Source of the DNA: Patescibacteria group bacterium
GTDB taxonomy: Bacteria; Patescibacteriota; Minisyncoccia; UBA6257; JAAZHW01
NCBI GenBank assembly: GCA_026415775.1
Contig: JAOAGL010000001.1
Coordinates: 270,233-334,232, forward strand
Reading direction: 5' to 3'
Length of the DNA stretch: 64,000 nt
Under the pieces are notes generated by a model. The model worked only from the letters and a program-made list of their open reading frames with translations. It was not told the origin of the DNA and did not search any database. Both the position numbers and the translations under genes were made by a program. Shown here one piece after another: positions 7,121 to 46,657 of this stretch (positions within the stretch are counted from its first letter, which is position 1; the number at the start of each line of letters is the position of its first letter).

Positions 7121-7142
7121 AAAAAGAAAAAGAAATTTTGAG

Positions 7143-7177
7143 GGCGGCGGCTGCTTTTTAGCAGCCGCCGCCTTTTT
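7143..7177 (+). terminator. rho-independent terminator (GGCGGCGGCTGC / loop TTTTTA / GCAGCCGCCGCC + TTTTT)
   Basis: Perfect 12-bp GC-rich stem followed by a T5 run immediately after the DJ-1 gene. GC island in AT-rich surroundings. Confidence 0.7.
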
Positions 7178-7262: not shown

Positions 7263-7271
7263 GTGTTATAA
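7263..7271 (+). promoter_or_regulatory. extended -10 element TGTTATAAT upstream of the giant pilin-like gene
   Basis: TGnTATAAT. The same 9-mer recurs upstream of ruvB (18780-18788) and the dedA-like gene (56985-56993). The nearby TTGACA (7251-7256) is too close (10-nt spacer) to serve as a -35. Confidence 0.35.
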
Positions 7272-7324
7272 TATTTTTGAATGGGATTAAAACGCTTATT
7301 TTAAGCAATTATTTTAAAAATTTT

Positions 7325-10300
7325 ATGTCATTTTTTGATAAAAAAATTAGTTCCAAAGCATTCACCTTAATTGAAATTTTAATCTACACAGCAATTTTTG
7401 GCGTTGTGGCTGCTGGTATTATCGGTGTTGCGTGGAACATCACGCGTCTTCACACAACCCAAATTGCTTCTAATGAAATTGATGAAAATTTGCGTTATGT
7501 AATGAATTTAGTAAATTCTAAAGTTCGTGAGGCTTCACTGATTGTACAGGCAAGTGGAACGACTTTAATTTTGCGGATGCCCGATTCACTAAAAAGTCCT
7601 ACAACATTTTCTTTAAACAATGGCACTTTATACATTCAAGAAGGAAGCGCTGATCCTGTAGCAATTACTTCCAATCGTGTTGAGGTTACTTCTTTGAATT
7701 TTGAATATATAAGCGTTGCTGGTAGTAAGGGTGGCGTGCGAGTTAATATTGCGATGGCATACAAAGAGCAGCCAGGTATTGCTTCGCGTGAATACATCAC
7801 AACAGTTACTAAGGTTAATGCCATCGTTTTTGATTCAGACATTATACCAGATGTAACTAATTCAAGAAGTGTTGGTATTAATACGGCGCAATGGAAGGAT
7901 GGTTATTTTTCTAGAAATGTAATAGTTGGCGGCGATGTTTCATCAACCGGTTTTATTATCGGTGGAGCTGGTCTTTGTATGGGAACTGATTGTCGTACTT
8001 CTTGGGGTCAGGTTACAGGCGTTACTGGTTCCGGCACACAAAATTATATTGCTAAATGGACCTCTTCTGGCTCTATTGGTAATTCGCAAATTTTTGATAA
8101 TGGGACTAATGTGGGTATTGGGACGACAAGTCCCAATGTAAAATTACATATTTCGAATACTACGGCAGGAATAAACGAACTATTGCGTTTAGCTTATAAC
8201 AATTCAGTGGGTTCAGGAGCGAGATTATCATGGTGGGCAGGAGATACCGTGTCAGAAACGGGGCGGATAGAAAACTTTGTAGATGCAGGAAATCAAGTGA
8301 GTTTAAGATTTTATACTTATAATTCTGGACTCGGTGAAAGAATGCGCATTACAGCTGCTGGTAATGTTGGTATCGGCACAGCATCTCCTCCTTCTCTTCT
8401 TTCCGTCGGCGCATCATCGCAATTTCAAGTTAATTCTTCTGGTGATATAGTTAAAATCAAAAACCTTACTTATTCCTGGCCATCCTCTCATGCTGTCGGA
8501 TTTCTTAAAAACGACGGCTCGGGTAATTTAACTTGGGATACTTCTGGCGCAGTTGGCGGCACAGGTTCAGCTGGCCAAGTGGCTTTTTGGTCCTCAACAA
8601 CAACGATAACAGGCGATAGCGGTTTTTATTGGGATAATACTAACAAAAGATTAGGTTTAGGCACAACTGCACCTGGTCAACGTTTATCTGTTGTTGGCGA
8701 TATTGGTTTATCTGGTGGCGATCGTTTTATTGGCACAACCGACGCCTATGGTTTAAGCATCAGAACAAACAATACCAATAGAATTTTCATTTCCGCTGAT
8801 GGTAATGTCGGTATTGGTACTACTTCGCCAAGCAGAACATTAGATGTTCATGGTATTGCGCAATTACGCGGCGCTGCCGGCGGCACTGGTTTATTTGTTG
8901 ATTCTGGTGGTAATGTGGGTATTGGGACGACAAGTCCAGCATTTAAACTTGATGTTAGTGGATCAGCTCGAGTTACCAATGTATTTAAAGAAGGCAATTG
9001 GCGTCACGTACTTTCTTCTTATGTTACTGCTACCCCTACTAATGGTGTTTTGTTAACTACCGCCATTCCTTATGATGGTGTTACAAATAGAGGAATGCAT
9101 GGTATTCGGGTGATGGGATATGCCTTTGGAGAGTCTAGACCTATAGATTTTGAAGTGGTATTTTATCTTTATACTTCTGGTTTTAATAGCTACGGCTGGA
9201 CAAATTATGGAGCTCATGACCCAGGAACAATTAAACTTTCTTATGAAGGTAATGTTGTTAAATTATGGTGGTCTTCTAAAGTTTATTATGCTAGTTATGA
9301 AATATTTACAAAAAGTCATGGAGCACTTGGCCAAAACGATTCATGGTTTGAGGGGTGGACCATCACTGATGCAGTAGCTCCTACTTCAAATGTTGTAGAT
9401 GTTCCATATCGAAATGCAATGCCTTATGGACTTGCAATGCGCGGCAATATTAATTTAAATGGAAATTGGCTTTCTGGAGACGGAGATAATGAGGGTGTTT
9501 ATATAAATGCTTCAGGTAATGTTGGTATTGGAGCAACAAGTCCATCATATCGATTAGATGTAGCTGGTGATATTAATACATCAGGTTATTTTAGAGGTAA
9601 TGGTTCCCAAATAACTAATTTAAATGCTTCTAATTTAACAAGTGGTATTGTGCCTGCAGCACGACTTTCATCTACGCAAGCTTATTATACTTTAGATCCG
9701 ATTTTTCCAAAAACAAATCAGCAACATACAACTTTAGGAGGAGCGACAATTGGTGAAATTGCTTTGTCGTCTGCTTATGTTCAAAATAAATTGCAATTTG
9801 TTTTACCTTATAGTATTGAATATACAACCAATGGAACAACCTGGAATACTTATCCTGATCCAGTTGATAGTGATACAGTTAAAAAAATGTTTTTGGGTTA
9901 TAACGCCGGGGGTAAAATTTATCTCCGTGGTCCCAATAATGGAAATTGGCTTGGTTTGCGCATAACATGGCAGGCACCTTCGTATTATTTCTTGAATTAT
10001 TTCTATACTTACATGAGTACTTCAGGACATCAATGTGCAATTACAATAGAAAAGACATATGGAGATGATTTGAATACATGGATTACTGTTGCTACAACGA
10101 CTAATTTTTCTAGTTGGCCTGGGCATACTCTTGTTCCTCATTCGAATATTGCGTGGAATCCGACACCTACTCCAGGTACTCATTCTAAATATGTACGAGT
10201 GACTTTTACTCCCACATGGAATGGATCTTATCCTAATAATAATATTGATATTTATGCAATAGATTGGTTTGGAGAATATCCAGCTAATATCAAACCCATG

Positions 10301-13300
10301 CAATTATTTACTTGGGATTTTGATAAAAATGTTACATTTGATAATGGATTAAGAATGCCTGGTAGTATTGGTATTGGGACAACAAATCCTATTCAAAAAT
10401 TACACGTCGAAGGAAATGCTTATATTTCAGGAAGTGTCGGCATTGGCACGACAAATCCAAATACTTTACTCGATGTAAGGGGAAGAATTAACACGCCAGA
10501 AATAGCTTTTCGTAATAGTGACGGAGGTGATGATAGTGACCCTTATCGTTTAAGAAAATATCAATTTGGTTCAAGCTCTAATGAACTTCAGCTTCAGTTA
10601 AATGATGATAGTGATGAAAGATTTGCTATTTATGGTAATTCTTGTAGTGGTTATAGTTGTGGTGAATATAGTGGTAATCTTTATCATTTCTTTAAAGCAG
10701 ATGGAACGGCTTATCATGCTGGCAACGTCGGTATCGGCACAACAAGTCCCTCATATAAATTAGACGTCTCAGGAGATATTCGTGCTACAGGAACTATTTA
10801 TGGAACATTCTCTGGTACAATCAATGCTGCTAATGTTTCAGCCGGTTCATTTGGTGCTAACACTGGTGGTGGCAATTATTCCTTCCCAGCGAATCTGACT
10901 GTTAGTGGAGCTGTTGGTATTGGGACGACGAATCCGGGGGTGAAATTAGATGTAGTAGGGGGATATATTAGAACTTGGGGTGGAGAGTTTATATCATATA
11001 AAGAGAATCCTGGAGGAATTTTGGGGGCTTTAGCTTTGGAAGGAAAAAATGCTTCCTCAACCAATCCTTATATGAAAAGATGGACTTTGTTTAATATGCA
11101 AGATTATTCTGGTGTGAATGGTTTTGTCATCTATGAATATTATGATGCAAATAATGATGGTAGTTATTGTAATGATGGCGGAGCATGTAATATGAGATTT
11201 ATTATTGCAAGTGGGGGTAATGTTGGTATCGGAACTGCCACTCCTGCTTATCCATTAGATGTAGTAGGTGATGTTAGATTCTCAGGCACTCTTCAAGGTG
11301 GTTCAGTGCCATGGGCTCGTTTAACTTCTTTCCCATCAGCTTGTTCTGCTGGCAATGCAGTAACTGGATTAGGCTCAACTCTTACTTGTTCGCCATTTAT
11401 GACTAATCCAATGACTACATTGGGTGATATCATCTACGGCGGTTCCAGTGGCACACCAACCCGTTTAGCTGGCTCAGCTGGTTTTCTTAAATCAACTGGC
11501 GCTGCTGCGCCTTCTTGGAGCGCTGTTAATCTTGCTTCCTCTGATGTAACAGGCACTTTAGCAGTAACTAGTGGCGGTACAGGTTTATCTTCTATTGCGG
11601 CTGGCTCTATTCTTTATGCTACTTCTTCTAATACTTTAATTGCCATTGCTCCAACTGCCGCTAATCAGGTTTTAAGGTCAACCGCTGCTAATGCCTTGCA
11701 ATTTGGCGCATTAGTTGCTGCTGATATTCCTAATTTAGACGCTAGTAAAATTACTTCAGGAACTTTTGGTATTGCTCGTGGCGGTACTAACTCAACTGCT
11801 ACTCCCACTGCTGGCGCTGTAGCTTATGGTACTGGTTCAGCTTATGCTTTTACTGCTGCTGGTACAGCTAACCAAGTTTTAATTTCAGGCGGCACCAGCA
11901 CTCCCACCTGGTCTAACATCGCTTCATTACTCACTCAAGGCACTAACATCACTATTTCTGGCACCACCAATGCCACTATTGCCACGGTTAACAACCCAAC
12001 TTTCTCTACTTCTGTTTCAACACCATTATTAACCAGCTCAGGCGCTATTGCTATTAAACCCGGTTCTAATTCAACCACCGCTATTCAATTACAAAATACC
12101 GGTGGTACAGCCATTGTTAATGTTGATACAACGAATAGTAGAGTAGGTATTAATAATGCAAGTCCCAGCTATGCTTTAGATATTACAGGCGATATCCGCG
12201 TTACTGGTGCCATCATTGGTACAGTTTCAACAACAATTTCGGCAACCAATGTTTCAGCCGGCGCTTTTGGTTCTAACACTGGTGGCGGCAATTATTCTTT
12301 CCCAGCCAGAGTAGGAATAGGCACAACGTCACCAAGTACAGATTTGCATATAAAAGTTTCAAGCGGTGATGTGAAAATACAACTGGGTACTCAAGCAAGT
12401 GTTGTGCCAACTACTGGAGGACCAAATAATCCTTCGGCAGCGGTCGATGATTCAAGCAATGGAGGTTCGGCTGTTTGGAGTAATCCAACCAATGTTTATA
12501 CCTCTAATGACGTTTATGCGTCAGTTACAATACCAGCAGGTGTGGATCCAGATTATTATTGGAGCGATTATTTGAAAGCGACGGGTTTTGGATTTTCTCT
12601 TCCTAGCACCGCTAATATTCTTGGGATTAAGGTAGAAATAGAGGCAAAGGCGAGCGTTGCTTCGACATTAACAATAAATGAAGTATTATTAGTTAAATCA
12701 GGTTCAATTGTTGGTAGCAGCAAAAGCGGAGGACTTCTAACTGCATCAGATGCGTACTACTCATTTGGTGATACAACTGATTTGTGGGGAACAACTTGGT
12801 CTTACTCAGATATTAACAATTCCAATTTTGGCGTGGTTGTGAGTGTATTTAATCCTACAACATCAGCAAGAACGGCTTATATAGACCACATTAGAATAAC
12901 CGTTTATTATACCAGCAGTGGAGATGCAGATTGGCAGATGGCAGTATCTTCAACAAGCGGCGCTTTCATTATAAATCCTTTATTTAGTGGTGGAAGAGTG
13001 GGCATTGGAACTACAACGCCATCGGCAACTTTAGATATAAATGGGACTCTTAATGTAAATGGAATTATTCAAGGAAAGTTTTATGATAAATATACTGGCA
13101 GCATTTCCCGCACTTATTCTAGTGGAAATGGAACTTCAAGCTTGAGCACGGGCAAATATTATCCTGATTGGTTCTGTGCCCTATCTAAAGTTGATGCTAC
13201 AGAGTTAGATACTGCTACCGAACATGCTTATTGCACGGTTACTCTCGACGGTAATAATCAGTGGCTTTTAAATGCTGTAATTAGCGGCGTCTCGGATCAA

Positions 13301-13336
13301 ACGGTTTCTTGTAGTATTTATTGCATACGATTATAA
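7325..13336 (+). CDS. giant (~2000 aa) prepilin-leader surface protein with tail-fibre-like 'GNVGIGTTSPxxKLDVxG' repeats
   Basis: Best start is the ATG at 7325 (MSFFDKKISSKA|FTLIEILIYTAIFGVVAAG), a class III/prepilin-type leader. The ORF track's 7277 start is a TTG. The remainder is G/S/T/N-rich with at least 11 repeat copies, two ~50-aa paralogous segments and a Cys-containing C-terminal domain. Confidence 0.6.
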   Translation: MSFFDKKISSKAFTLIEILIYTAIFGVVAAGIIGVAWNITRLHTTQIASNEIDENLRYVMNLVNSKVREASLIVQASGTTLILRMPDSLKSPTTFSLNNGTLYIQEGSADPVAITSNRVEVTSLNFEYISVAGSKGGVRVNIAMAYKEQPGIASREYITTVTKVNAIVFDSDIIPDVTNSRSVGINTAQWKDGYFSRNVIVGGDVSSTGFIIGGAGLCMGTDCRTSWGQVTGVTGSGTQNYIAKWTSSGSIGNSQIFDNGTNVGIGTTSPNVKLHISNTTAGINELLRLAYNNSVGSGARLSWWAGDTVSETGRIENFVDAGNQVSLRFYTYNSGLGERMRITAAGNVGIGTASPPSLLSVGASSQFQVNSSGDIVKIKNLTYSWPSSHAVGFLKNDGSGNLTWDTSGAVGGTGSAGQVAFWSSTTTITGDSGFYWDNTNKRLGLGTTAPGQRLSVVGDIGLSGGDRFIGTTDAYGLSIRTNNTNRIFISADGNVGIGTTSPSRTLDVHGIAQLRGAAGGTGLFVDSGGNVGIGTTSPAFKLDVSGSARVTNVFKEGNWRHVLSSYVTATPTNGVLLTTAIPYDGVTNRGMHGIRVMGYAFGESRPIDFEVVFYLYTSGFNSYGWTNYGAHDPGTIKLSYEGNVVKLWWSSKVYYASYEIFTKSHGALGQNDSWFEGWTITDAVAPTSNVVDVPYRNAMPYGLAMRGNINLNGNWLSGDGDNEGVYINASGNVGIGATSPSYRLDVAGDINTSGYFRGNGSQITNLNASNLTSGIVPAARLSSTQAYYTLDPIFPKTNQQHTTLGGATIGEIALSSAYVQNKLQFVLPYSIEYTTNGTTWNTYPDPVDSDTVKKMFLGYNAGGKIYLRGPNNGNWLGLRITWQAPSYYFLNYFYTYMSTSGHQCAITIEKTYGDDLNTWITVATTTNFSSWPGHTLVPHSNIAWNPTPTPGTHSKYVRVTFTPTWNGSYPNNNIDIYAIDWFGEYPANIKPMQLFTWDFDKNVTFDNGLRMPGSIGIGTTNPIQKLHVEGNAYISGSVGIGTTNPNTLLDVRGRINTPEIAFRNSDGGDDSDPYRLRKYQFGSSSNELQLQLNDDSDERFAIYGNSCSGYSCGEYSGNLYHFFKADGTAYHAGNVGIGTTSPSYKLDVSGDIRATGTIYGTFSGTINAANVSAGSFGANTGGGNYSFPANLTVSGAVGIGTTNPGVKLDVVGGYIRTWGGEFISYKENPGGILGALALEGKNASSTNPYMKRWTLFNMQDYSGVNGFVIYEYYDANNDGSYCNDGGACNMRFIIASGGNVGIGTATPAYPLDVVGDVRFSGTLQGGSVPWARLTSFPSACSAGNAVTGLGSTLTCSPFMTNPMTTLGDIIYGGSSGTPTRLAGSAGFLKSTGAAAPSWSAVNLASSDVTGTLAVTSGGTGLSSIAAGSILYATSSNTLIAIAPTAANQVLRSTAANALQFGALVAADIPNLDASKITSGTFGIARGGTNSTATPTAGAVAYGTGSAYAFTAAGTANQVLISGGTSTPTWSNIASLLTQGTNITISGTTNATIATVNNPTFSTSVSTPLLTSSGAIAIKPGSNSTTAIQLQNTGGTAIVNVDTTNSRVGINNASPSYALDITGDIRVTGAIIGTVSTTISATNVSAGAFGSNTGGGNYSFPARVGIGTTSPSTDLHIKVSSGDVKIQLGTQASVVPTTGGPNNPSAAVDDSSNGGSAVWSNPTNVYTSNDVYASVTIPAGVDPDYYWSDYLKATGFGFSLPSTANILGIKVEIEAKASVASTLTINEVLLVKSGSIVGSSKSGGLLTASDAYYSFGDTTDLWGTTWSYSDINNSNFGVVVSVFNPTTSARTAYIDHIRITVYYTSSGDADWQMAVSSTSGAFIINPLFSGGRVGIGTTTPSATLDINGTLNVNGIIQGKFYDKYTGSISRTYSSGNGTSSLSTGKYYPDWFCALSKVDATELDTATEHAYCTVTLDGNNQWLLNAVISGVSDQTVSCSIYCIRL

Positions 13337-13390
13337 AATAAATAAAAAATAATCAATAAATAAAAAATAATCAATAAATAAAAAATAACA
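13337..13390. repeat. 3 tandem copies of the 18-bp AT-rich unit AATAAATAAAAAATAATC (third copy degenerate)
   Basis: Read directly from the sequence, immediately after the stop of the giant ORF. Confidence 0.5.
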
Positions 13391-13425
13391 AAGGTCTAAT
13401 TTAATAAAATCGGAACATTTCAAAT

Positions 13426-16640: not shown

Positions 16641-18320
16641 ATGCAACAAAATGATAAAAATGCACAATTAGCTGAGATGATTAAAAAGGCGCAACTGGCT
16701 GCTGAAGAAAGAGAGGCAGAGCGATTAGCTAATTCTTTGGGTTTGAAATATGGAGATTTAACAAAAATATCTGCTCAAACAGACGCGCTGGAATTGATTA
16801 ATGAAGAAGAAGCCAAGGTCGCTCTTTGCGCTCCTTTTTTGCTGAAACAAAAAACTATTTTATTAGCTTGTAAAAACCCTGCTTTGGAGGCAACTAAAAA
16901 TGTAATAGAAGGTTTGAGAAGTAAAGGTTATGATTTGGATATTTATGTTGTTTCTTTAAGGTCGTTAGAGAATCTTTGGCAAGGTTATCGCTTTATTGTG
17001 GGTAGAAAAAAAGAAATTACTGGCGGTATAGAAGTAGACAAAGACCATTTGGCAAGCATAATGAATGAAGTTAAAACGACCTCATCTTTAAAAGAAAAAA
17101 TACAAAATTTTGATAGTCCTTATATTTCTCAAATTTTTGAAATTATTATTGCTGGAGCAATAGCGATGGATGCTTCGGATATTCATATTGAACCAGAAGA
17201 AAGCGGCATTCGTTTGAGATATCGTTTGGATGGCGTTTTGCAAGATATTTCAGCATTAAATCAGCATCATTATCGCTCGATTATTTCAAGAATTAAATTA
17301 TTGGGCGGTATGAAAATCAATGTTCATACAGCGCCGCAAGATGGAAGGTTCACAATTAAAACTTATGATGTTGATATCGAGGTGCGTGTTTCTATTATTC
17401 CGAGCGCTTATGGTGAAACGGTTGTAATGCGTTTGCTTAATCCCAAAAACATTCAATTGGATTTAAAAAATTTAGGTTTTCGTGAAGATGATTTGGCCAT
17501 TATGGAGGAGCAAATTGGGCGCCCCAATGGTATTATTTTGAATACTGGTCCAACAGGGTCAGGTAAAACAACGACCTTATACGCTTTTTTAAGACGTATT
17601 TATAATCCAGAAATTAAGATTATTACTGTTGAAGACCCCATTGAATACCACTTGGAAGGAATAACCCAGACGCAAGTAAATCCAACGCGTAACTATACCT
17701 TTGCTTCTGGTTTGCGGTCAATTTTGCGTCAAGACCCCGATGTAATTTTAGTGGGTGAGATTCGCGATAATGAAACAGCAGAGATTGCTATGCATGCTGC
17801 TTTAACGGGCCATCTCGTTTTTTCTACTTTGCATACTAATGATGCTTGTGGTACAATTCCTCGGTTATTGGATATGAATATCCAGCCAGCAATTCTGGCG
17901 CCAGCATTAAATCTGGCTATTGCTCAGCGTTTGGTTAGAAAATTATGCCAACACTGTAAAGAAGCTGTGGAATTAACGCCAGAACAAGCTGACAAAATTA
18001 GAAAGATGGTTGAAAAAATGCCCGAAAGAGTTAAGAAGCCACAATTGGGGGATAAGATTGTTATTTATAAATCTAAAGGTTGCGAGCATTGCAATGGAAC
18101 AGGTTATAAAGGAAGAGTGGCGGTAGCAGAATTGCTGGTGGTTGATAGAGATATTCAAAATTTAATTACGCGCTCAGAGAAAATGCCGACGGCGGCGGAA
18201 ATTAAAGATATGGCTATTCAAAAAGGAATGACAACAATGGAGGATGATGCGATTTTAAAAATTTTGGATGGTATTACAAGTTTATCTGAGGCGGAAAATG
18301 TTTTGGGTAAACTTCTATAG
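16641..18320 (+). CDS. PilB/GspE-family type IV filament assembly ATPase (paralog 1)
   Basis: Walker A 'GPTGSGKTTT', Asp/His boxes, and a tetracysteine motif CQHCKE...CEHCNGTGYKGR. 559 aa. Confidence 0.85.
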   Translation: MQQNDKNAQLAEMIKKAQLAAEEREAERLANSLGLKYGDLTKISAQTDALELINEEEAKVALCAPFLLKQKTILLACKNPALEATKNVIEGLRSKGYDLDIYVVSLRSLENLWQGYRFIVGRKKEITGGIEVDKDHLASIMNEVKTTSSLKEKIQNFDSPYISQIFEIIIAGAIAMDASDIHIEPEESGIRLRYRLDGVLQDISALNQHHYRSIISRIKLLGGMKINVHTAPQDGRFTIKTYDVDIEVRVSIIPSAYGETVVMRLLNPKNIQLDLKNLGFREDDLAIMEEQIGRPNGIILNTGPTGSGKTTTLYAFLRRIYNPEIKIITVEDPIEYHLEGITQTQVNPTRNYTFASGLRSILRQDPDVILVGEIRDNETAEIAMHAALTGHLVFSTLHTNDACGTIPRLLDMNIQPAILAPALNLAIAQRLVRKLCQHCKEAVELTPEQADKIRKMVEKMPERVKKPQLGDKIVIYKSKGCEHCNGTGYKGRVAVAELLVVDRDIQNLITRSEKMPTAAEIKDMAIQKGMTTMEDDAILKILDGITSLSEAENVLGKLL

Positions 18321-39467: not shown

Positions 39468-40508
39468 ATGCGTGTTTTGGGTATTGATATCGGGACAACA
39501 AATATTAAGGCGGTAGAATTATCTGGCACAGTTGACCAGCCAATTTTAGAAAACTATGGCATTTTAGAAACTTACGGATATCTTGAACGCAATAACGCCA
39601 CAATTCAAAGCAATTATTTTAAATTGGTGGAAGATGTAACAATTGATTTAGTAAAAAAACTCTTTTTGGTTTTAAAACCCAAAACCAAAAGGGCTGTTTT
39701 CTCTTTGCCGGTTTTTTCCAGTTTCATAACCCAATTTGACTTACCCTTTACAGACAAAAAAGAAATTGCTACGGCTGTAACTTTCGAGGCAAAAAAATAT
39801 ATACCCGTGCCATTAGAAGAGTTGGAAATTAGTTGGATGTTGGTTGGTCAAACTACAGAAGGAACAAAAGAGAAAAGTAATATTGTATTGGTAGCCACAC
39901 CAAGAGAATTGGTTGAAAAATATAGGAGAATAGGACAGGCAGTAGGTCTGAATGTGTTGGGCTGGGAAGTCGAAGGCATTTCGTTAATTCGTTCACTAAT
40001 CAAGGGTGATAAAAGAAATACTTTGATTATTGATATGGGAACACAGATTACCAATTTTTTTATTGTTGAAAATGGTTTTTTAGTAAGTTATGAAACTTTA
40101 AATATTGGAGGCGCAGAAATCACTCATGTTATTAGTCGAAGTCTAGGCGTTAATAAAGAAAGAGCGGAGGAATTTAAAAAGATAAAAGGTTTTAAGGTGG
40201 ATCCTCAAGAAATGGGTGTCGTTAATATTTTAATGCCGATTGTGGATAACTTTGGCAATGAAATTTTAAGAATGATGGATATTTATCAGCAAAAGAATAA
40301 TAAAAAAATCGAACGCATTATTATTACTGGCGGAGGAGCTAATATGCCTGGTTTGGTGGAGTATTTTGAGGATTTTTTGAATACTTCCGTTGAAAAGGGT
40401 TGGCCGTTTCAGGATATAAAGTATGTTGATTTCTTAGAGCCTCTTTTGCGCGATGTGGCACCTTTTCTTTCTATTTCCACAGGGGCGGCGCTTAAGGGCT
40501 TGGAATAG
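39468..40508 (+). CDS. pilM: type IV pilus assembly protein PilM (actin-like ATPase)
   Basis: 'MRVLGIDIGTTNIKAVEL' FtsA/PilM-type N-terminus. Followed by pilN- and pilO-like genes. Confidence 0.7.
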   Translation: MRVLGIDIGTTNIKAVELSGTVDQPILENYGILETYGYLERNNATIQSNYFKLVEDVTIDLVKKLFLVLKPKTKRAVFSLPVFSSFITQFDLPFTDKKEIATAVTFEAKKYIPVPLEELEISWMLVGQTTEGTKEKSNIVLVATPRELVEKYRRIGQAVGLNVLGWEVEGISLIRSLIKGDKRNTLIIDMGTQITNFFIVENGFLVSYETLNIGGAEITHVISRSLGVNKERAEEFKKIKGFKVDPQEMGVVNILMPIVDNFGNEILRMMDIYQQKNNKKIERIIITGGGANMPGLVEYFEDFLNTSVEKGWPFQDIKYVDFLEPLLRDVAPFLSISTGAALKGLE

Positions 40509-40536
40509 TCTGTAAAAAATATTATAATTTAAATAT

Positions 40537-41070
40537 ATGGCTGAGTTTCAAAATATAGATTTATACGCTAAAAAAAGATCTGGTGGATGGTTGGGTAGAT
40601 TATTAACCCTTTCAATAATTTTACTAATTATTTCTTTGGGGTTGTATTTTATTGCCGTATTTTATCAAAACTATCTAAATAAAAACATTAGTGATTTAAA
40701 CAATAAAATAAAATCTTTAAGCAATGAGATTTCCGAAACCGATAGAAGGGAAGTTCTAGGCTTTTATTCGCAATTAATAAATTTAAAAGCGCTGCTTAGT
40801 AATCATTTATATTCTTCCAAAATTTTTGAACGATTAGAATTGATTACTCATCCAAAAGTTGCCTTTTCCGCATTTTCTTATGATTATAAAAATAAAACTT
40901 TAAAAATAGATGGTTATTCAAATAATTTGGAGTTTTTGGCTCAACAAATGTTGGCATTTCAAAAAGTTTCCGAATTTAATAAGGTGAATTTATCCAACGT
41001 AAGAATAGCTGGTGATAAGGTCACTTTCGCTTTTGAAATTACTTTTAATCCCAATTTCGTTTTAAAATAA
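40537..41070 (+). CDS. pilN: PilN-like bitopic membrane protein
   Basis: Single TM after a short cytoplasmic N-terminus, a coiled coil, 177 aa. Position is after pilM. Confidence 0.45.
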   Translation: MAEFQNIDLYAKKRSGGWLGRLLTLSIILLIISLGLYFIAVFYQNYLNKNISDLNNKIKSLSNEISETDRREVLGFYSQLINLKALLSNHLYSSKIFERLELITHPKVAFSAFSYDYKNKTLKIDGYSNNLEFLAQQMLAFQKVSEFNKVNLSNVRIAGDKVTFAFEITFNPNFVLK

Positions 41071-41077
41071 TCAAACT

Positions 41078-41680
41078 ATGAAAGAAACAACAAAAAGAAA
41101 TTTTAGTTTAATACTGACAATCATATTCTTTTTAATATCCGTGATAACCTTCTTTAATTATACGTGGCCAAATTTACTTAAAGTTCTTGATTTAAATGAT
41201 AGTTTGAAGCTTGTTAAAGAAGAATATGCTCGTCAGAGCAAATCTTTACAGCTGGCGAAAGACATAATTAATCAGTATAAAAATTTATCAAACGTTAATC
41301 AAATGATTTCATTAACGCTCCCCAAAACCGACGAGCTTTTTAACGTTTTAGCACAATTGGATAAAATTTCTTCTGAAAGCGGAATATTAATCCAAAATAT
41401 CACCATTAAACCTCCTCTTCAAAGTGCAACATCCACGGCAACTGGTGTTGATGGTGGTAGTGCAAAAGCATCTTTAATTAACGCGGTTCAATCTGTTAAT
41501 GTTGATTTGTCTATGGTTGGCACATACGAATCTTTTAAAACTTGGTTAAATGCTATAGAAACTAATATAAGATTAATGGATGTTACCTCCATTAATTTTA
41601 CTGGCGTGGTTGCTTCGGAAAAAACAACAACTAATATTTTTAATTTCCGCGTCAATCTAAATTTTTATTATCAACCATAA
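41078..41680 (+). CDS. pilO: PilO-like bitopic membrane protein
   Basis: N-terminal TM, coiled coil, 200 aa. Position between the pilN-like gene and pilB. Confidence 0.4.
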   Translation: MKETTKRNFSLILTIIFFLISVITFFNYTWPNLLKVLDLNDSLKLVKEEYARQSKSLQLAKDIINQYKNLSNVNQMISLTLPKTDELFNVLAQLDKISSESGILIQNITIKPPLQSATSTATGVDGGSAKASLINAVQSVNVDLSMVGTYESFKTWLNAIETNIRLMDVTSINFTGVVASEKTTTNIFNFRVNLNFYYQP

Positions 41681-41681
41681 T

Positions 41682-42044
41682 ATGGAAACAGTAGAGCAAA
41701 AACCAAAAACAAATATTTTCATCTACGTTATCATAGTTATTCTTATTGCTGCTATTGCTATAGTTTATTTTGTATTTTTTGCACCTGAAAAAATTGCAAA
41801 AAAACAGACAACTGTTACAACTGTTAATGTCGCAACCCAAGAGACTGGAGCGATTACATCACAAACAACAACCGCAATAAAAACTACTGGTACAACAACA
41901 GCGGATATAACTGGTGGATTAAGCAGTTTAAAATTAACACCAGAAGAGATTTTAAACAATCCAATTTTTCAATCTTTGCATTCCTATGCTGAACCGGTAG
42001 AATTGCCCAGCCTGGGTCGTCCTAATCCATTTATTCCATACTAA
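41682..42044 (+). CDS. small Thr-rich membrane-anchored protein in the pilus operon
   Basis: TM (IFIYVIIVILIAAIAIVYFVFF) followed by a T-rich low-complexity stretch (TTVTTVNVATQETGAITSQTTTAIKTTGTTTADITGG). Confidence 0.35.
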   Translation: METVEQKPKTNIFIYVIIVILIAAIAIVYFVFFAPEKIAKKQTTVTTVNVATQETGAITSQTTTAIKTTGTTTADITGGLSSLKLTPEEILNNPIFQSLHSYAEPVELPSLGRPNPFIPY

Positions 42045-42051
42045 TTTTACA

Positions 42052-43812
42052 ATGATTCCAAATAAAAACTTTCTTGATTTATTGGTTAAAAATAACAAGA
42101 TAAACCAATCATTGGCTGATCGTTTATTAAAAGAAAGCCAAAATTTAAATCGCAATGTTGAAGATTTAATTTATGAACGCAATCTTATTTCTGATGAGGA
42201 AATAGCCAAAATTAAAAGCGAGTACTATAAAATTCCTTTAAAGACATTTACAAAAGAAGAAATAGTACCTAATGAAGTTTTGAATATTATCCCCGAGGAG
42301 GTTTCTCGAACCCACAAGATTGTTGCTTTTAAAAAAGAAAAGGATACTTTGTATGTCGGTATGCTTTATCCTGATGATACTAAGGCACAGGATATCTTGA
42401 AATTTATTGCTAAACAGAAAAAATTGAATATCGCCATTTATCTTGTTGCAAAGAGCGATTTAGAAAATTTGTGGAAAAATTATCGGTCATTTGCTACTCG
42501 CTTAAAAGAAATTCAAGATAGTGTAGAAATATTTAAACGCCAAGCAAAAGCAACCCACCAATTATATCAACAAAGAATTATTAGAATTGATGAAGCTAGT
42601 GGGGTGATTGCTGAAGAGGCGCCTGTGATTAAAATTGTTTCAACTGTTTTGGAAGAAGCGGTTAATGCCGATGCTTCTGATATACATATCGAACCGATGC
42701 GAAACAGATTAAGAGTGCGTTTCAGATTGGATGGCGACTTAAAAGAAATTATGAGCTTGCCCTTGGAATTGCAACCCGCCATTGTCGCTCGCATTAAAAT
42801 TTTGTCTGATTTAAAAATTGACGAAACACGCGTGCCTCAAGATGGACGATTCCGAACATTGCTAGACAATAAAGAAATTGATTTTCGTGTTTCAACTTTG
42901 CCAACTGCGTTGGGTGAAAAAGTGGCCATTCGTATTTTAAATCCTTATATCGGATTAAAAACAATTGAAGGGCTGGGTGTAAAAGACTACCATCAAAAGC
43001 TGATTCTAGAGGGAATTGAAAAGCCTTTTGGTATGATTCTTGTTACTGGTCCAACGGGTTCTGGTAAGACAACAACGTTATACGCTGTTCTCCAAAAATT
43101 AAATCAAGAAGACATCAATATTGTTAGTTTAGAAGATCCGGTAGAGTACTTTATTGAAGGATTAAATCAGTCTCAAGTTAAACCAGAAATTGGTTATAAT
43201 TTTGCTTCGGGGTTAAGACAGATTGTGCGTCAAGACCCTGATGTAATAATGGTTGGTGAGATTCGCGATAATGAAACGGCTGAATTAGCTGTGCACGCTG
43301 CCCTTACTGGTCATCTAGTGCTTTCGACGTTGCATACTAATAATGCTATTGGAGTTATTCCGCGATTAATTGATATGAAAATTGAGCCTTATTTGTTGCC
43401 AGCATCGCTTATTTTAATGGTTGCTCAGCGATTGGTTGGGAAGTTGTGTGATAATTGTAAACAAAAAGTTGAAGCCACAGGAATTTTAAAAGAAGAAATT
43501 GAAAAAACAATTGATTCACTGCCTTCGGAATTGAAAAAGAAATACAAAAAAGAAAAATACGAAATTTACTTACCACAGGGTTGTAAAGAATGTAATTTTA
43601 AGGGAGTGAAAGGCCGTATTCCCATTTTTGAAATTTTAAAAATGACACCGTCTTTAGAGCAGGTGATTTTAACTAATCCATCAGAAGCTAATCTCAAAGC
43701 CGAGGCGGAAAGGCAGGGAATGGTTACTTTGCGACAAGATGGCATTATCAAAGCTTTAGAAGGCATTGTTTCGGTTGATGAGGTTCTTAAAGAAACAGTG
43801 AAATTGGAATAA
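42052..43812 (+). CDS. pilB: type IV pilus assembly ATPase PilB (paralog 2, in the canonical operon)
   Basis: Walker A 'GPTGSGKTTT' and tetracysteine motif CDNCKQK...CKECNFKGVKGR. 586 aa. Confidence 0.85.
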   Translation: MIPNKNFLDLLVKNNKINQSLADRLLKESQNLNRNVEDLIYERNLISDEEIAKIKSEYYKIPLKTFTKEEIVPNEVLNIIPEEVSRTHKIVAFKKEKDTLYVGMLYPDDTKAQDILKFIAKQKKLNIAIYLVAKSDLENLWKNYRSFATRLKEIQDSVEIFKRQAKATHQLYQQRIIRIDEASGVIAEEAPVIKIVSTVLEEAVNADASDIHIEPMRNRLRVRFRLDGDLKEIMSLPLELQPAIVARIKILSDLKIDETRVPQDGRFRTLLDNKEIDFRVSTLPTALGEKVAIRILNPYIGLKTIEGLGVKDYHQKLILEGIEKPFGMILVTGPTGSGKTTTLYAVLQKLNQEDINIVSLEDPVEYFIEGLNQSQVKPEIGYNFASGLRQIVRQDPDVIMVGEIRDNETAELAVHAALTGHLVLSTLHTNNAIGVIPRLIDMKIEPYLLPASLILMVAQRLVGKLCDNCKQKVEATGILKEEIEKTIDSLPSELKKKYKKEKYEIYLPQGCKECNFKGVKGRIPIFEILKMTPSLEQVILTNPSEANLKAEAERQGMVTLRQDGIIKALEGIVSVDEVLKETVKLE

Positions 43813-43848
43813 AATTGGTTTATAATATAAAATAAAATAGAAAAACAT

Positions 43849-44922
43849 ATGGATTTATTTTATAAAGACAAATTAGAACAACTTTTAATGCTTACAGCGC
43901 AAGAAAGCGCTTCTGATTTGCATTTTTCGGTTGGCCGCAAACCAACTTTAAGAATTGATGGACGATTAGTTCCTATTGTTAAAGAGGAAGTTTACACAAA
44001 GGATATTGTGGCTGGTTTAGTTGATGCTCTTCTTCCAGCAGAAAAAAAAGAAGAATTTCTTAAAAATAGAGAAGTTGATTTTTCTTATACTTTATCCGAT
44101 AAAGCGCGTTTTCGTGTTAATGTTTATTTTCAAAGAGGCAATATGGCCGCCTCATTAAGATTTATTCCTTATAAAATTAGAACCATTGAAGAATTAAATT
44201 TGCCGCCAGTATTGCATGATTTTACTAAATATACTCAGGGATTTGTATTGGTGGTTGGTCCAGCAGGGCATGGCAAATCAACAACTCTTGCTGCCTTAAT
44301 TGATGAAATTAATCATAAAAGAACCACGCATATTATTACAATTGAAGATCCAATAGAATATGTTTTTATTCAGGATAGATCAATTATTGACCAAAGAGAA
44401 GTTTTTAGCGACACTCTGAGTTTTCATCGCGCTTTGCGTTCAGTTTTGCGACAAGATCCGGATGTAATTATGGTCGGTGAAATGCGCGACCCAGAAACAA
44501 TTCAAACTGCTATTACAGCCGCTGAAACTGGGCATTTGGTTTTTTCAACTCTTCATACTAATTCTGCTTCCCAGACAATTGATCGTATTATTGATAGTTT
44601 TCCAGCTTCACAACAAGCCCAAATCAGAACCCAGCTAGCTTCAACGTTAGTAGGTATTGTTTCTCAAAGATTAGTGCCGCGGTTAAATGGTGGTCGCGTG
44701 CCTGCTTGCGAGGTTATGATAACAAATTCTGCCATTCGCAATTTAATTAGAGATGATAAAGTTTATCAAATTGATTTAGTTATTGAAACTAGCATCCAAG
44801 AAAAAATGATTTCTTTAAATCGTTCGTTGGCAAATCTTGTAAAACAAAGCGAAATTTCTTTAGAAACAGCCCAATCGTATTCATTAAATCCGGCCGAATT
44901 AGCAAATCTTTTGGCTCGATAA
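43849..44922 (+). CDS. pilT: twitching motility/retraction ATPase PilT
   Basis: Shorter (357 aa) PilT/PilU-type ATPase with Walker A 'GPAGHGKSTT' and 'VGEMRDPETIQTAITAAETGHLVFSTLHTN'. Confidence 0.75.
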   Translation: MDLFYKDKLEQLLMLTAQESASDLHFSVGRKPTLRIDGRLVPIVKEEVYTKDIVAGLVDALLPAEKKEEFLKNREVDFSYTLSDKARFRVNVYFQRGNMAASLRFIPYKIRTIEELNLPPVLHDFTKYTQGFVLVVGPAGHGKSTTLAALIDEINHKRTTHIITIEDPIEYVFIQDRSIIDQREVFSDTLSFHRALRSVLRQDPDVIMVGEMRDPETIQTAITAAETGHLVFSTLHTNSASQTIDRIIDSFPASQQAQIRTQLASTLVGIVSQRLVPRLNGGRVPACEVMITNSAIRNLIRDDKVYQIDLVIETSIQEKMISLNRSLANLVKQSEISLETAQSYSLNPAELANLLAR

Positions 44923-44925
44923 AAT

Positions 44926-46137
44926 ATGGCTAAATTTAGATATACGGGTAGAAATGAATTAGGAGAAATTCAAAGCGGCGTTGTTGAAGCTGGCAATCGT
45001 GATTTGGCAATTCGAGTTTTGCAAGATAATAAAATTTACGTTCTGTCTCTTGAATCTTTGGAGAAAAAAGGATTTTTTGAAAATTTACTTAGAAGTTTTC
45101 AAAAAGTAAAAATCAAAAATCTGATGATTTTTACAAGGCAATTAAGCACTTTGCTTTCAGCTAAAGTTCAATTAATTGATGCTCTAAAAACTTTATACAA
45201 TCAAATAAATGACCCAATTTTAAGGGACGCTGTTTTTGATGTTTTTACTGATGTTGAAGGGGGGTTATATCTTTCCCAAGCCCTATCAAAACACCCCAGA
45301 GTTTTTTCTGATTTTTATATTAATATGATTAAATCCGCAGAATTATCAGGTCGATTGGAAGAAACATTAAATTATCTGGCTGATTATCTAGAAAAAGAGA
45401 ATAAATTAACCAGCAGATTTAGAAATGCTTTAATATACCCAATATTTATTTTAGTGGTTTTTTTGGCTGTTTTAATTTTGGTGGTTACCGTTGTGATTCC
45501 GCAATTAAAAAGCGTTTTTGTTGAAGCAGATGTAAAATTACCATTTCTCACGAGGTTTTTATTAAACATCGGTGATTTTATTTTAAATTGGGGTGTGGGG
45601 TTGATTATCTTTTTTGGCGCAGTTATTATCTTGCTTGTTAGATATATTAGAACAGAAGAGGGAAGGAGGTTTTGGCAGCAAACCACCCTTTCTATTCCTA
45701 TTTTAGGAGGCATTGTTAAAAAAGTTGCCTTGAGTCGCTTCTCTTCATCTTGTAGCGCTTTGATTAAAGGCGGTTTGCCAATTGCTAATTCTTTAGAAAT
45801 TGCTGGTAAAATTACAACAAACATTGTTTATGAAAAAATTCTTGCAAATACCGCTGAGGCCATTCGAACAGGTTCTTCCATTTCTCAATATCTTGCTCAA
45901 TATCCCGATTATTTTCCGCCAATGGTGATTCAAATGATTTCGGTTGGTGAATCCTCGGGGCGAGTAGAAGATTTATTAATGCGAGTGGCGGATTTTTATA
46001 GCAATGAAGTAGATCAGACAGTAAGCAATATAGCGGAAATTATTCAACCTATTCTAATTATTGCCTTGGGCGTTTTTATGGGCTTATTTATTGCCGCTGT
46101 GCTTTTGCCAATATATAATTTAGCCCAGGTCTTTTAA
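44926..46137 (+). CDS. pilC: type IV pilus platform protein PilC
   Basis: Duplicated GspF/PilC domain architecture with 3 TM segments. 403 aa. Confidence 0.8.
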   Translation: MAKFRYTGRNELGEIQSGVVEAGNRDLAIRVLQDNKIYVLSLESLEKKGFFENLLRSFQKVKIKNLMIFTRQLSTLLSAKVQLIDALKTLYNQINDPILRDAVFDVFTDVEGGLYLSQALSKHPRVFSDFYINMIKSAELSGRLEETLNYLADYLEKENKLTSRFRNALIYPIFILVVFLAVLILVVTVVIPQLKSVFVEADVKLPFLTRFLLNIGDFILNWGVGLIIFFGAVIILLVRYIRTEEGRRFWQQTTLSIPILGGIVKKVALSRFSSSCSALIKGGLPIANSLEIAGKITTNIVYEKILANTAEAIRTGSSISQYLAQYPDYFPPMVIQMISVGESSGRVEDLLMRVADFYSNEVDQTVSNIAEIIQPILIIALGVFMGLFIAAVLLPIYNLAQVF

Positions 46138-46195
46138 ATTTGATTTTAATATTTTAAAATATATAAAAGGTCGATTTATCAAAAAATAAATAAAA

Positions 46196-46657
46196 ATGCG
46201 TAATAAAAACAAAGGTTTTACTTTAATTGAAATGCTCGTCGTTATTGCGGTAATTGGTTTGTTGGCCGCGTTAATTTTGGTTGGTTTGTCCAGTTTTAGA
46301 ACCCGCGGTCGAGATACTAGAAGAATTGCTGATTTAAAAGAGGTGCAGAATGGTTTGGAAGTATATTATATGAAAAATGGTAATTATCCAAATGTTAATA
46401 CTTGGAGCGCATTAGAAACGGCGTTAGTTGGTGCTGGTATCGGAATCACAAGCATTCCTAAAGATCCAACAGCCACTTATAATTATGTGTATGGTGTTGA
46501 TGCAACTCAGCAACACTATGTAATTGGCGCAACAATTGAAGATGCAGCAGGTAACCAATCTTTATTGGCTAATGATATAGATGGTAACCCTGTTAATTTG
46601 GCGGGTGTTACTATTAATGTTAATTGTGAGGATCCTGTTTATTGTGTAGGAATGTAA
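46196..46657 (+). CDS. pilA: type IV pilin
   Basis: Class III signal peptide 'MRNKNKG|FTLIEMLVVIAVIGLLAALIL' followed by a ~120-aa globular domain with a C-terminal Cys pair. Confidence 0.8.
   Translation: MRNKNKGFTLIEMLVVIAVIGLLAALILVGLSSFRTRGRDTRRIADLKEVQNGLEVYYMKNGNYPNVNTWSALETALVGAGIGITSIPKDPTATYNYVYGVDATQQHYVIGATIEDAAGNQSLLANDIDGNPVNLAGVTINVNCEDPVYCVGM

Follow-up and report, generated by a model that had tools for sequence, protein, structure and literature searches.

A giant Patescibacteria gene that joins a predicted type IV pilin module to a tail-fibre-type shaft: a probable modular minor pilin

We analysed a window of 64,000 nucleotides, the whole stretch of Patescibacteria DNA considered here, and found a giant gene (Table 1) that probably encodes a modular type IV minor pilin, carrying on the pilus a fibre that binds host glycans. 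Its function is most likely that of a pilus-tip or pilin-anchored adhesin for host surface glycans, and the protein most likely belongs, as an extreme case, to the modular pilins known from earlier work. A database match of the protein identified the source organism as a Patescibacterium, and the role in host attachment put forward in a preliminary description of this DNA is therefore reasonable. NCBI holds the identical protein with the same start, MCX8015963.1, already named as a prepilin-type domain protein.

Table 1. Positions in the window of the giant gene, its parts and the related features
Feature	Position	Strand	Basis
Intrinsic terminator of the preceding gene (DJ-1/PfpI)	7142..7177	+	Read from sequence: GGGCGGCGGCTGC-TTTTTA-GCAGCCGCCGCC, then TTTTT
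Extended -10-like element TGtTATAAT, candidate giant-gene promoter	7264..7272	+	Read from sequence
Giant modular pilin gene (probable)	7325..13336	+	ORF list and translation; 2,003 aa; end includes stop codon
Class III (prepilin) leader, aa 1-12, last residue Ala(-1)	7325..7360	+	KA/FTLIE (slash, predicted cleavage site), F(+1), E(+5), Pfam N_methyl match
Mature pilin module, aa 13-175	7361..7849	+	Hydrophobic alpha1N, long alpha1 (about aa 15-69), 7-stranded beta-sheet
Mosaic tail-fibre/MAT-like shaft, aa 176-2003	7850..13333	+	14 VGIGTTxPxxKLxV capping-loop-like motifs, interspersed beta-rich domains
Inserted domain, aa 548-728	8966..9508	+	Among retrieved proteins, common only to P0011 and P0013
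Inserted domain, aa 790-1000, possibly discoidin/F5/8-type-C-like	9692..10324	+	Sub-threshold Pfam match
Paralogous segment of ~50 aa, copy 1 (..NVSAGSFGANTGGGNYSFPA..)	10743..10890	+	blastn
Paralogous segment of ~50 aa, copy 2	12159..12306	+	blastn
Beta-jelly-roll domain, aa ~1695-1864, carbohydrate-binding-module (CBM)-like	12407..12916	+	AlphaFold and Foldseek
C-terminal small beta domain, aa ~1922-2003, presumed distal tip	13088..13333	+	Cys 1951, 1970, 1996, 2000; pLDDT ~85
Recurrent partner gene: membrane-anchored cupredoxin-like protein, 175 aa	13426..13953	+	Zero His, CxxCGGL motif
Second PilB-type ATPase, link to giant gene uncertain	16641..18320	+	Pfam T2SSE 1.8e-121
T4P machinery: PilM-like and three small proteins, PilB, PilT, PilC, major pilin	39468..46657	+	Pfam T2SSE, T2SSF, N_methyl
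Prepilin peptidase (PilD), expected leader-cleaving enzyme	46642..47574	+	Pfam A24_N_bact 6e-30, Peptidase_A24 1e-9

The reading frame is uninterrupted on the + strand from either a TTG at 7277 or an ATG at 7325, from which residues are counted here. The terminator of the preceding gene, absent from the output of a consensus terminator scan, sets the giant gene apart from the upstream transcription unit. The candidate extended -10 element lies 52 nt 5' of the ATG and the TTG only 5 nt past that element, so the TTG is probably located at or before the transcript start. The gene has no Shine-Dalgarno (SD) motif, which is normal for this genome since an SD-like motif was found in only 2 of the 51 genes of the window. 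The protein is 13 times the size of the canonical pilin of the window (at 46196), less than the ~15-fold first estimated. It is rich in G (12.3%), T (11.0%), S (10.8%), A (8.0%) and N (7.5%), G, A, S and T together making up 42% compared with 36-39% in the TM7x pilins (PMC11623550). Most of its 13 Cys residues are in close pairs, and four fall within the last 53 residues, in agreement with the Cys-containing C-terminal domain noted earlier. The composition and the paired Cys suggest an extracellular protein.

The N-terminus reads MSFFDKKISSKA up to the predicted cleavage site and FTLIEILIYTAIFGVVAAG after it, and the corresponding sequence of the canonical pilin is MRNKNKG followed by FTLIEMLVVIAVIG; these two were the only prepilin motifs detected by a six-frame scan of the window. 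Class III signal peptides have a short polar leader with Gly, or rarely Ala or Ser, as its last residue, then F or M at +1, E at +5 and a hydrophobic stretch of about 20 residues; the giant pilin conforms to this pattern. Pfam N_methyl (cut-off 21.2 bits) scored 21.3 for the full protein and 25.3 for the N-terminal module (N-module), and matched all 10 aligned relatives as well; TIGR02532 scored 16.7 on the first 180 aa (cut-off 16.3), but 12.9, under the cut-off, on the full-length protein. The open reading frame of about 2,000 aa with a prepilin-type leader is thus confirmed. The further suggestion that the leader is a PilD substrate agrees with the N_methyl match and with the PilD gene of the window, whereas residue -1 is Ala and not the usual Gly. 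Of 137 relatives with a recognisable motif, 123 have G at this position, 13 have A and one has S, and the closest relative, P0002, has G. E(+5) is invariant and F(+1) nearly invariant among 39 diverse relatives.

Residues 1 to ~175 form a complete pilin module. According to the AlphaFold model (mbe3c55d54db5, pLDDT 80), a 55-residue alpha1 helix is joined to a seven-stranded sheet, the predicted counterpart of the pilin fold, in which an alpha1 helix of about 50 residues packs on an antiparallel beta-sheet. In the PDB sequence search with the N-module profiles A1 and A4, the best 15 to 19 matches were all type IV pilins. The best NCBIfam likeness is to the ComGF/GspJ-type minor (pseudo)pilins: 37 of 39 family members matched ComGF below threshold (best E 4e-8; E 0.04 for the giant pilin itself), and other relatives resembled ComGE, GspH and GspJ. 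All ComGF/GspJ-type matches are under the equivalog cut-offs and express a class-level likeness rather than proven orthology, suggesting by sequence that the N-module is akin to these minor pilins. Short family members hold the minor-pilin position: in 13 T4P operons, relatives of 163-200 aa are encoded between PilC and a PilM-like protein. Members of the N-module family are encoded on the chromosome and are widespread among Patescibacteria, with relatives present in 253 species-representative genomes; at E<=1e-3 the N-module has 8,376 cluster representatives. At least one fibre motif was also detected in 109 of the 151 top N-module relatives, so the pilin-fibre fusion is a family trait.

The remainder of the protein is a shaft homologous to phage tail fibres and, by sequence comparison, to the MAT (mosaic adhesive trimer) fibres of Bdellovibrio. 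A regular expression for the motif, [VIL]G[IL][GN][TAN][TAN]x[PA], found copies at aa 263, 348, 443, 495, 531, 733, 1015, 1038, 1135, 1197, 1300, 1607, 1663 and 1892, compared with a mean of 0.007 and a maximum of 1 in 2,000 composition-preserving shuffles; the preliminary description, with at least 11 copies, had undercounted them. The repeat closely resembles the published MAT/S74 capping-loop motif, V-G-G/N-pi-x-x-P-x-x-x-L (PMC10769870). Its tail-fibre character, proposed earlier, was borne out by PHROG tail-fibre families 9942, 18345 and 3269 (E down to 1e-32) and by phmmer matches in the PDB to the solved Bdellovibrio MAT fibres 8ojn and 8ond (Bd2133), with E 5e-6, in which the aligned segments bear the motif. 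More than 2,900 homologues were found, many with a C-terminal Peptidase_S74, an intramolecular chaperone marked by SDxxxK (P0008 and P0024 among them); a Pfam search detected no Peptidase_S74 in the giant pilin at E<=1, and its C-terminus is a different, Cys-rich beta domain. Individual shaft inserts are common to different unrelated giant proteins, and the two paralogous segments noted earlier are real, 72% identical over 148 bp by blastn. By analogy with the solved homologues the shaft would be trimeric, and three pilin modules would therefore be needed at the pilus tip, as in CofB/TcpB.

The PHROG matches, together with structural matches in BFVD, could also be expected of a prophage or tailocin tail-fibre gene with a chance pilin-like hydrophobic start, a reading that we regard as close to negligible. 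The neighbours of the giant gene are housekeeping genes (SMC, S16, DJ-1, GGDEF and RuvB), with no phage structural genes among them by Pfam, and the synteny is kept across genomes. Of 50,697 phage records only 7 matched, each covering 4-14% of the protein, and the chromosomal N-module family has the wide Patescibacteria spread described above.

Several domains of the shaft and of its distal end point to binding. The jelly roll was modelled with high confidence (AlphaFold m790d9660b796, pLDDT ~97), and its top Foldseek matches in the PDB were CBM4, CBM16, CBM29, CBM11 and SGBP-B (E 3e-5 to 1e-3, probability ~1.0), a likeness at fold level with 8-16% identity and a target TM of about 0.5; no CBM match to this domain was found by Pfam or PDB sequence search. 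Among viral structures (BFVD) it matched tail fibre, tail protein and host-specificity proteins (E down to 3e-13), and it is also widespread as a stand-alone secreted protein of ~190 aa. The domain at aa 790-1000 matched Pfam F5_F8_type_C with E 2.7e-4 and 21.5 bits, under the cut-off of 28.2, and a PDB sequence search with it gave no match; a Pfam search with the domain at aa 548-728 gave none either. The C-terminal Cys-rich domain is common to P0002, P0003, P0004, P0005 and P0007, and structure comparison resolved no specific fold match for it. The CBM-like jelly roll, the likeness to phage receptor-binding proteins and the sub-threshold discoidin match together suggest a binding function.

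A glycan depolymerase, breaking down capsule or cell-wall material of the host in the manner of many phage beta-helix tailspikes, would also fit a shaft that is homologous to phage tail fibres and tailspike-type S74 proteins, and one Foldseek match was indeed a capsule depolymerase of a Klebsiella phage (E 8e-4). In that match 319 columns were aligned with an rmsd of 29 A. The fold predicted with confidence at the distal end is a jelly roll of CBM type, which is non-catalytic, and Pfam, NCBIfam and PDB sequence searches detected no catalytic domain anywhere in the 2,003 aa. We consider an enzyme in place of an adhesin quite improbable.

The machinery for a type IV pilus is encoded in the window, with PilB, PilT, PilC and the major pilin at 42052-46657; at locus L043 the same T4P gene order lies directly 3' of a 385-aa N-module pilin. 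The giant gene itself is outside the T4P operon, ~29 kb away, and most long family members are likewise orphans. The second PilB-type gene had been described as adjacent; it is instead located 3.3 kb and four genes downstream, and its synteny with the giant gene, for which a comparative search had been proposed, is kept in the close relatives L001-L003 but absent near distant fibre-pilins. A recurrent companion is the cupredoxin-like partner (Pfam Cupredoxin_1 E 4e-5, below the cut-off), whose gene is directly downstream of the fibre-pilin in L003, L004, L005/L016, L008 and L011, with its CxxCGGL motif conserved, and adjoins mini fibre-pilins in L024, L052, L054, L058 and L066.

The orphan position is consistent with a surface fibre that never enters a pilus, in which the class III signal would serve only PilD processing and anchoring by the pilin-like helix, and the fibre would project from the envelope. 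Homologous fibre modules are found on plain TM or Sec N-termini in other Patescibacteria proteins (P0003, P0009 and P0011-13), the recurrent membrane-anchored partner could act in docking or assembly, and the MAT fibres are surface-displayed through a separate N-terminal domain (PMC10769870). We consider this reading possible though unlikely, since the N-module is a complete pilin with alpha1 and beta-sheet, more than a TM helix, and E(+5) is invariant among the 39 relatives. Pilus assembly in general depends on E5 for building the filament, not for anchoring. Genes for short homologues lie within T4P operons, and the modular pilins studied by experiment are pilus-borne (PMC8179133, PMC11623550).

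Among known systems, the giant pilin fits the definition of a modular pilin, a pilin module (aa 1-175) with an extra module that is not T4P-specific. Modular pilins, such as PilB (with vWA) and PilC (with a lectin module) of Streptococcus sanguinis, act as adhesins, with tip display and adhesion as proposed roles, and their catalogue includes many CPR/Patescibacteria examples, pilin-S74 architectures among them (Raynaud et al. 2021, PMC8179133). The part grafted here is ~1,830 aa compared with ~350 aa in S. sanguinis PilB and 860 aa in the published "most extreme" case (PMC8179133), and it is a multi-domain tail-fibre-type shaft in place of one globular domain. The grafted domains have no Pfam signature, and an InterPro-based survey of the kind published (PMC8179133) would therefore probably miss the giant pilin. 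In TM7x (Nanosynbacter lyticus), the modular minor pilin PilX2 was shown by experiment to be needed for efficient host binding (PMC11623550). PilX2 likewise comes from Patescibacteria, and a large accessory domain follows its minor-pilin part at the C-terminus; this module is a beta-propeller, the gene lies in a pilus locus, and the accessory part is not known to be homologous to that of the giant pilin.

CofB and TcpB, minor pilins that sit as homotrimers at the tip of type IVb pili (PMC8179133), offer the sole precedent for a pilus capped by three identical pilin modules. As in the giant pilin, a pilin module is followed by beta-repeat and beta-sandwich domains, and they form trimers at the pilus tip; no sequence similarity of the giant pilin to CofB/TcpB was detected, and the machinery in the window is T4a/Com-like with PilT. 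Each of these two tip pilins is about a quarter the size of the giant pilin.

The MAT fibres of Bdellovibrio bacteriovorus (for instance Bd2133 and Bd3182; PDB 8ond, 8ojn; Caulton et al. 2024, PMC10769870) share with the giant pilin directly homologous shaft segments, the recurring VGxGxxxPxxxL capping-loop motif and mosaic domains with swappable tips, lectin-type ones included, and they sit on the surface of small cells that attach to other bacteria (PMC10769870). MAT-superfamily shafts are beta-helices or prisms, intertwined as homotrimers over the full length of the fibre. They begin with a Sec signal peptide and a conserved beta-rich N-terminal domain of ~130 aa, which we compared by its description; the giant pilin has the class III signal and the 55-residue helix instead. 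The MAT proteins are about 1,000 aa, half the length of the giant pilin, which lacks S74. S74 phage fibres and tailspikes (K1F endosialidase, T5 L-shaped fibre) have the same shaft repeat family, and the distal region of the giant pilin resembles phage receptor-binding proteins in fold; it differs from them by the lack of S74, by its chromosomal non-phage context and by a pilin N-terminus in place of a virion-attachment domain.

Compared with the preliminary description, the pilin leader, the tail-fibre repeat and a reasonable role in host attachment stand, while the undescribed family and the general linkage to PilB do not: a motif closely resembling the repeat and the class of modular pilins are published, the N-module family is large, and NCBI already names the protein as prepilin-type. 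The description had listed three outcomes that would speak against it; none of them was observed, and what we found is a predicted alpha1 helix with a beta-sheet, a probable ATG start with a prepilin-type leader and a repeat resembling those of tail and surface fibres.

In the proposed mechanism, the giant pilin would be inserted into the membrane via its class III signal peptide, cleaved after Ala12 by the prepilin peptidase of the window, and held in the membrane by the hydrophobic alpha1N helix. The ~160-aa pilin module would then dock the protein on the type IV pilus, with the tip as the most likely place, and the remaining ~1,830 aa would extend as a long, presumably trimeric tail-fibre/MAT-type shaft. 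Beta-sandwich domains of lectin type, on the shaft as well as at its distal end, would bind glycans of the host-cell surface, and PilT-driven retraction would draw the ultrasmall cell onto its host. Counted against this mechanism are Ala(-1), the low full-length TIGR02532 score, the distance from the T4P operon, the three adjoining pilin modules that a trimeric shaft needs, with type IVb tip pilins as the sole precedent, and a CBM likeness that is one of fold only.

Modular pilins and MAT fibres were published in 2021 and 2024, respectively; new are the specific pilin-fibre fusion, its size and the recurrent His-less cupredoxin-like partner gene. Because the same fibre modules also occur on TM and Sec N-termini, the pilin module may be one of several interchangeable surface anchors in these bacteria.

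The giant gene is an unbroken plus-strand reading frame running from TTG 7277 or ATG 7325 to 13336, and its product counts 2,003 aa from the ATG. NCBI entry MCX8015963.1 is the identical protein with the same start; its contig, 492 kb long, comes from a 'Patescibacteria group bacterium', and the entry bears the name 'prepilin-type N-terminal cleavage/methylation domain-containing protein'. The preliminary description was confirmed with minor corrections, since the ORF, the prepilin leader, the repeats, the paralogous segments and the Cys-bearing C-terminus are all present. The N-terminus reads MSFFDKKISSKA before and FTLIEILIYTAIFGVVAAG after the cleavage site; the leader motif stands, with residue -1 corrected to Ala. 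Across all frames of the window, prepilin motifs were detected in the giant protein and in the 153-aa pilin at 46196 and in no others.

The upstream TTG, named earlier as a refuting case should it be the true start and give a non-processable leader, was rejected. It begins 5 nt past the -10-like box and is therefore unlikely to be translated, and both NCBI and the closest homologue (P0002, MLFFRKKIKPSG followed by FTLIE, with a leader equal in length to that from the ATG) have the ATG-equivalent start. If used, the TTG would merely extend the leader to 28 aa and keep the cleavage motif. An SD-like motif (GGAG, GAGG or AGGA in the 20 nt before the start codon) occurs in only 2 of the 51 inspected window genes, so the AT-rich stretch before the giant ATG is normal for this genome, where initiation appears essentially SD-independent with A/T-rich leaders. 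The spacer to the next gene is AT-rich and holds a ~21-bp tandem repeat, aataaataaaaaataatcaat, in ~2.5 copies; it has no obvious terminator, suggesting that the giant gene and its downstream partner may be co-transcribed. Upstream lies the gene of a 193-aa protein that has both a PadR/winged-helix region and the PaaX central Cas2-like domain (PaaX_M at 1e-15, CRISPR_Cas2 match weak); no CRISPR array was noticed nearby.

Features of the window and of compared loci (prefix L) carrying relatives of the giant protein
Feature	Position	Strand	Remark
PadR/PaaX-like protein gene	5406-5987	+
Terminator hairpin, strong	7142-7177		downstream of the upstream DJ-1 gene; read from sequence
TGtTATAAT element (-10-like)	7264-7272		upstream of the giant gene; read from sequence
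Spacer, giant gene to partner gene	13337-13425
Partner gene, membrane-anchored, cupredoxin-like	13426-13953	+	immediately downstream of the giant gene
Partner-gene copies	L003:13733-14263, L004:15295-15867, L005:15859-16410, L011:7183-8858, L024:9835-10389
Small TM protein gene	14037-14456, L001:13823-14266, L003:12735-13157	+ (window)
GGDEF to second PilB block	14531-18320	+
Second PilB-type ATPase	16641-18320
T4P machinery	39468-47574		PilM-like and three small proteins, PilB, PilT, PilC, major pilin, prepilin peptidase
Short N-module relatives, 13 loci	L030, L044, L057, L059, L063, L068-L070, L074-L076, L078, L079		match near 9001 in most
'Mini' fibre-pilin P0124	L006:3679-4449

The first ~175 aa form a pilin module, here the N-module. 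Pfam N_methyl was matched by the giant protein and by 10/10 aligned relatives, and TIGR02532 scored above cut-off on the isolated N-terminus and below it on the full-length protein. The AlphaFold model (10-sequence alignment, pLDDT 80) shows a helix of 55 residues and, after it, seven beta-strands, so that the prepilin alpha1 helix asked for in the preliminary description is predicted. In PDB searches with N-module profiles the best-ranked matches, made via alpha1N, were all type IV pilins, and a Foldseek search of the module against the PDB returned nothing significant, probably because alpha1N is missing from most solved pilins.

An exhaustive HMMER search gave 8,376 cluster representatives related to the N-module at E<=1e-3, of which 399 reach E<=1e-30. 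The module is N-terminal in every one of the best 150 relatives, which are 157-2,003 aa long (median 543), and the giant protein is the longest known elaboration of the family. Among the top relatives, residue -1 is mostly G (123), otherwise A (13) or S (1), and 109 of 151 carry at least one fibre motif (a VGIGTTxPxxKLxV-type repeat). E(+5) and Tyr(+9) are invariant and F(+1) nearly so. Relatives are encoded at 253 loci of species-representative genomes, and nearly all of these loci belong to Patescibacteria lineages, among them Paceibacterota/Parcubacteria, Wolfe-, Jorgensen-, Harrison- and Uhrbacteria and Microgenomates. At 13 loci a short relative (163-200 aa) is encoded within a canonical T4P operon, in the order PilB, PilC, pilins, short relative, PilM-like, major pilin; their slot is fixed, with PilC or small pilins on one side, a PilM-like gene on the other and the major pilin after it. 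The ComGF minor pilin is resembled, below threshold, by 37 of 39 diverse members, and ComGE, GspH and GspJ by others; the short forms define a conserved ComGF-like minor pilin of the Patescibacteria T4P. Taken together, the fold, signatures, operon context and conserved residues show the N-module to be a genuine minor-pilin family. 'Mini' fibre-pilins of ~255-290 aa (P0124; L024, L052, L054, L058) are built of the pilin module, one VGIGT..P fibre unit and a small end domain that contains Cys; possibly the minimal form of the pilin-fibre architecture, they would make simpler objects of study.

The repeats of the body are real, and the earlier count of at least 11 was too low: a regex for the core finds 14 copies (composition-preserving shuffles, mean 0.007, maximum 1). 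The two ~50-aa paralogous segments lie at 10743-10890 and 12159-12306 and are 72% identical at the DNA level; blastn on DNA recovered internal paralogous segments missed by protein self-BLAST, which gave no off-diagonal matches. The last 53 residues hold 4 of the 13 Cys. Pfam and NCBIfam searches with the whole protein and seven slices gave, beyond N_methyl, only a sub-threshold F5/8-type-C match; the body is without a Pfam model. PHROG tail-fibre families match it (phrog_9942 at 1e-32, plus 18345 and 3269), and in phmmer searches against the PDB its motif-bearing segments align to two solved Bdellovibrio fibres, 8ojn and 8ond (Bd2133). Both are members of the superfamily named 'mosaic adhesive trimer' (MAT), which comprises surface-displayed, intertwined-trimeric fibres with swappable lectin-type tips, whose recurring capping-loop motif V-G-G/N-pi-x-x-P-x-x-x-L (PMC10769870) closely resembles the giant protein's repeat.

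The body is common to >2,900 database proteins, only a small subset of which have a pilin leader. Many end in the Peptidase_S74 chaperone, whereas the giant protein is without it. Single inserted domains are common to different, otherwise unrelated giants, some with plain TM or Sec N-termini; the main rival explanation is that the pilin module is only a membrane anchor for a cell-surface fibre. The best-supported reading is that the giant protein is a modular minor type IV pilin presenting a very long tail-fibre-like adhesin. A prophage origin was rejected, as the gene lies among housekeeping genes and the phage records with a match, all of them weak, number only 7 of 50,697; each covers 4-14% of the giant protein's length, and the matching genes are annotated as tail fibres. 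A diversity-generating retroelement target was likewise rejected, since the window holds no template repeat for the gene's 3' end.

AlphaFold on aa 1675-2003 (46-sequence alignment, overall pLDDT 83) predicts a jelly roll at aa ~1695-1864 (pLDDT ~97) and, at aa ~1922-2002, a small beta domain. Foldseek relates the jelly roll to carbohydrate-binding modules (CBM4, 1gu3, at 3.4e-5; also CBM16, CBM29, CBM11 and SGBP-B) and gives 103 matches to viral models at E<=1e-3, the named ones being tail fibre, tail protein and host-specificity proteins. Elsewhere the domain occurs in stand-alone ~190-aa and T9SS-sorted proteins. The insert at aa 790-1000 has the sub-threshold discoidin (F5/8-type-C) match; PDB sequence searches with the aa 745-1015 slice and the C-terminal profile gave no matches.

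The partner gene recurs at wider distances than the close relatives, downstream of fibre-pilins in L003, L004, L005/L016, L008 and L011, and adjoins ~270-aa 'mini' fibre-pilins in L024, L052, L054, L058 and L066; among species representatives it accompanies 8/61 long and 1/19 short family genes. Its product in the window has zero His and thus no type-1 copper site, and a copper-protein role was rejected; a CxxCGGL motif is kept in the closest orthologues. The partner protein may act in assembly or as a chaperone, or it may serve for docking. A small TM protein gene (~140 aa, no known family) also adjoins the fibre-pilin and is kept in close relatives.

The neighbouring PilB paralogue noted previously exists, but 3.3 kb away. 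In the close relatives L001-L003 a block is kept of giant gene, small TM proteins, GGDEF, ~483-aa TM protein, PilB paralogue and RuvB; RuvB, PolA and TsaE are likewise conserved, so the block may be mere general synteny. PilB was not found near distant fibre-pilin loci, and a functional tie was rejected because the synteny is confined to close relatives. In the window, the block's genes encode a 194-aa stand-alone GGDEF diguanylate cyclase, a TM protein of 483 aa without an assigned family and the second ATPase. PilB1 at 42052 has an MshEN domain scoring above the Pfam cut-off, which suggests that c-di-GMP controls pilus extension. The prepilin peptidase has A24_N_bact and Peptidase_A24 domains.

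Modular pilins are a described, widespread class with the pilus tip as proposed site, and CofB and TcpB are homotrimeric tip pilins (PMC8179133). The saccharibacterium TM7x needs its modular minor pilin PilX2 to bind its host efficiently (PMC11623550). We infer cleavage, pilus incorporation, trimerisation and glycan binding for the giant protein. With the ~550 Å model of Bd3182 (922 aa; PMC10769870) as the scale, its predicted 1,830-aa shaft would be roughly 100 nm long. Tentatively, and with considerable doubt, we propose that in Patescibacteria a phage/MAT-type trimeric receptor-binding fibre is fused directly onto the T4P tip subunit as a retractable 'harpoon' with a partner-gene chaperone. 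Three pilin modules would cap the pilus, the fibre would scan for host glycans, and retraction by PilT would afterwards haul the cell in to its host; the His-less cupredoxin-fold membrane protein would be a dedicated assembly/chaperone factor replacing the missing S74 chaperone.

The claim that the family is undescribed did not hold, as modular pilins (PMC8179133) and the MAT superfamily (PMC10769870) are published; both component kinds and the prepilin-type annotation are already known. What is new is the fusion of pilin and fibre shaft, the length of 2,003 aa and the partner gene. In the library searched, no paper was found that relates pilins of Patescibacteria to shafts of the MAT or tail-fibre kind, and Raynaud et al. 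list pilin-S74 architectures only as 'predicted peptidases' (PMC8179133). Surveys that find modular pilins by domain signatures probably overlook the longest ones, since no Pfam models exist for the fibre modules.

If true, the harpoon would physically link tail fibres and pili, host-recognition systems so far studied separately, and would suggest one anchoring route for MAT-like fibres. The trimeric tip model, if right, would carry the principle of CofB/TcpB over to a pilus of a very different kind and tie MAT fibres to type IV pili, a connection that the MAT authors brought up as an open question (PMC10769870). The family is a concrete candidate for host recognition and holding by ultrasmall, episymbiotic Patescibacteria, a pilin-mounted, tail-fibre-like, domain-swapping adhesin found across Parcubacteria/Paceibacterota lineages. 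To our knowledge, the pili tested so far in this role are those of Saccharibacteria only. The variable tips of fibre-pilins could encode host range in the fashion of phage tail fibres.
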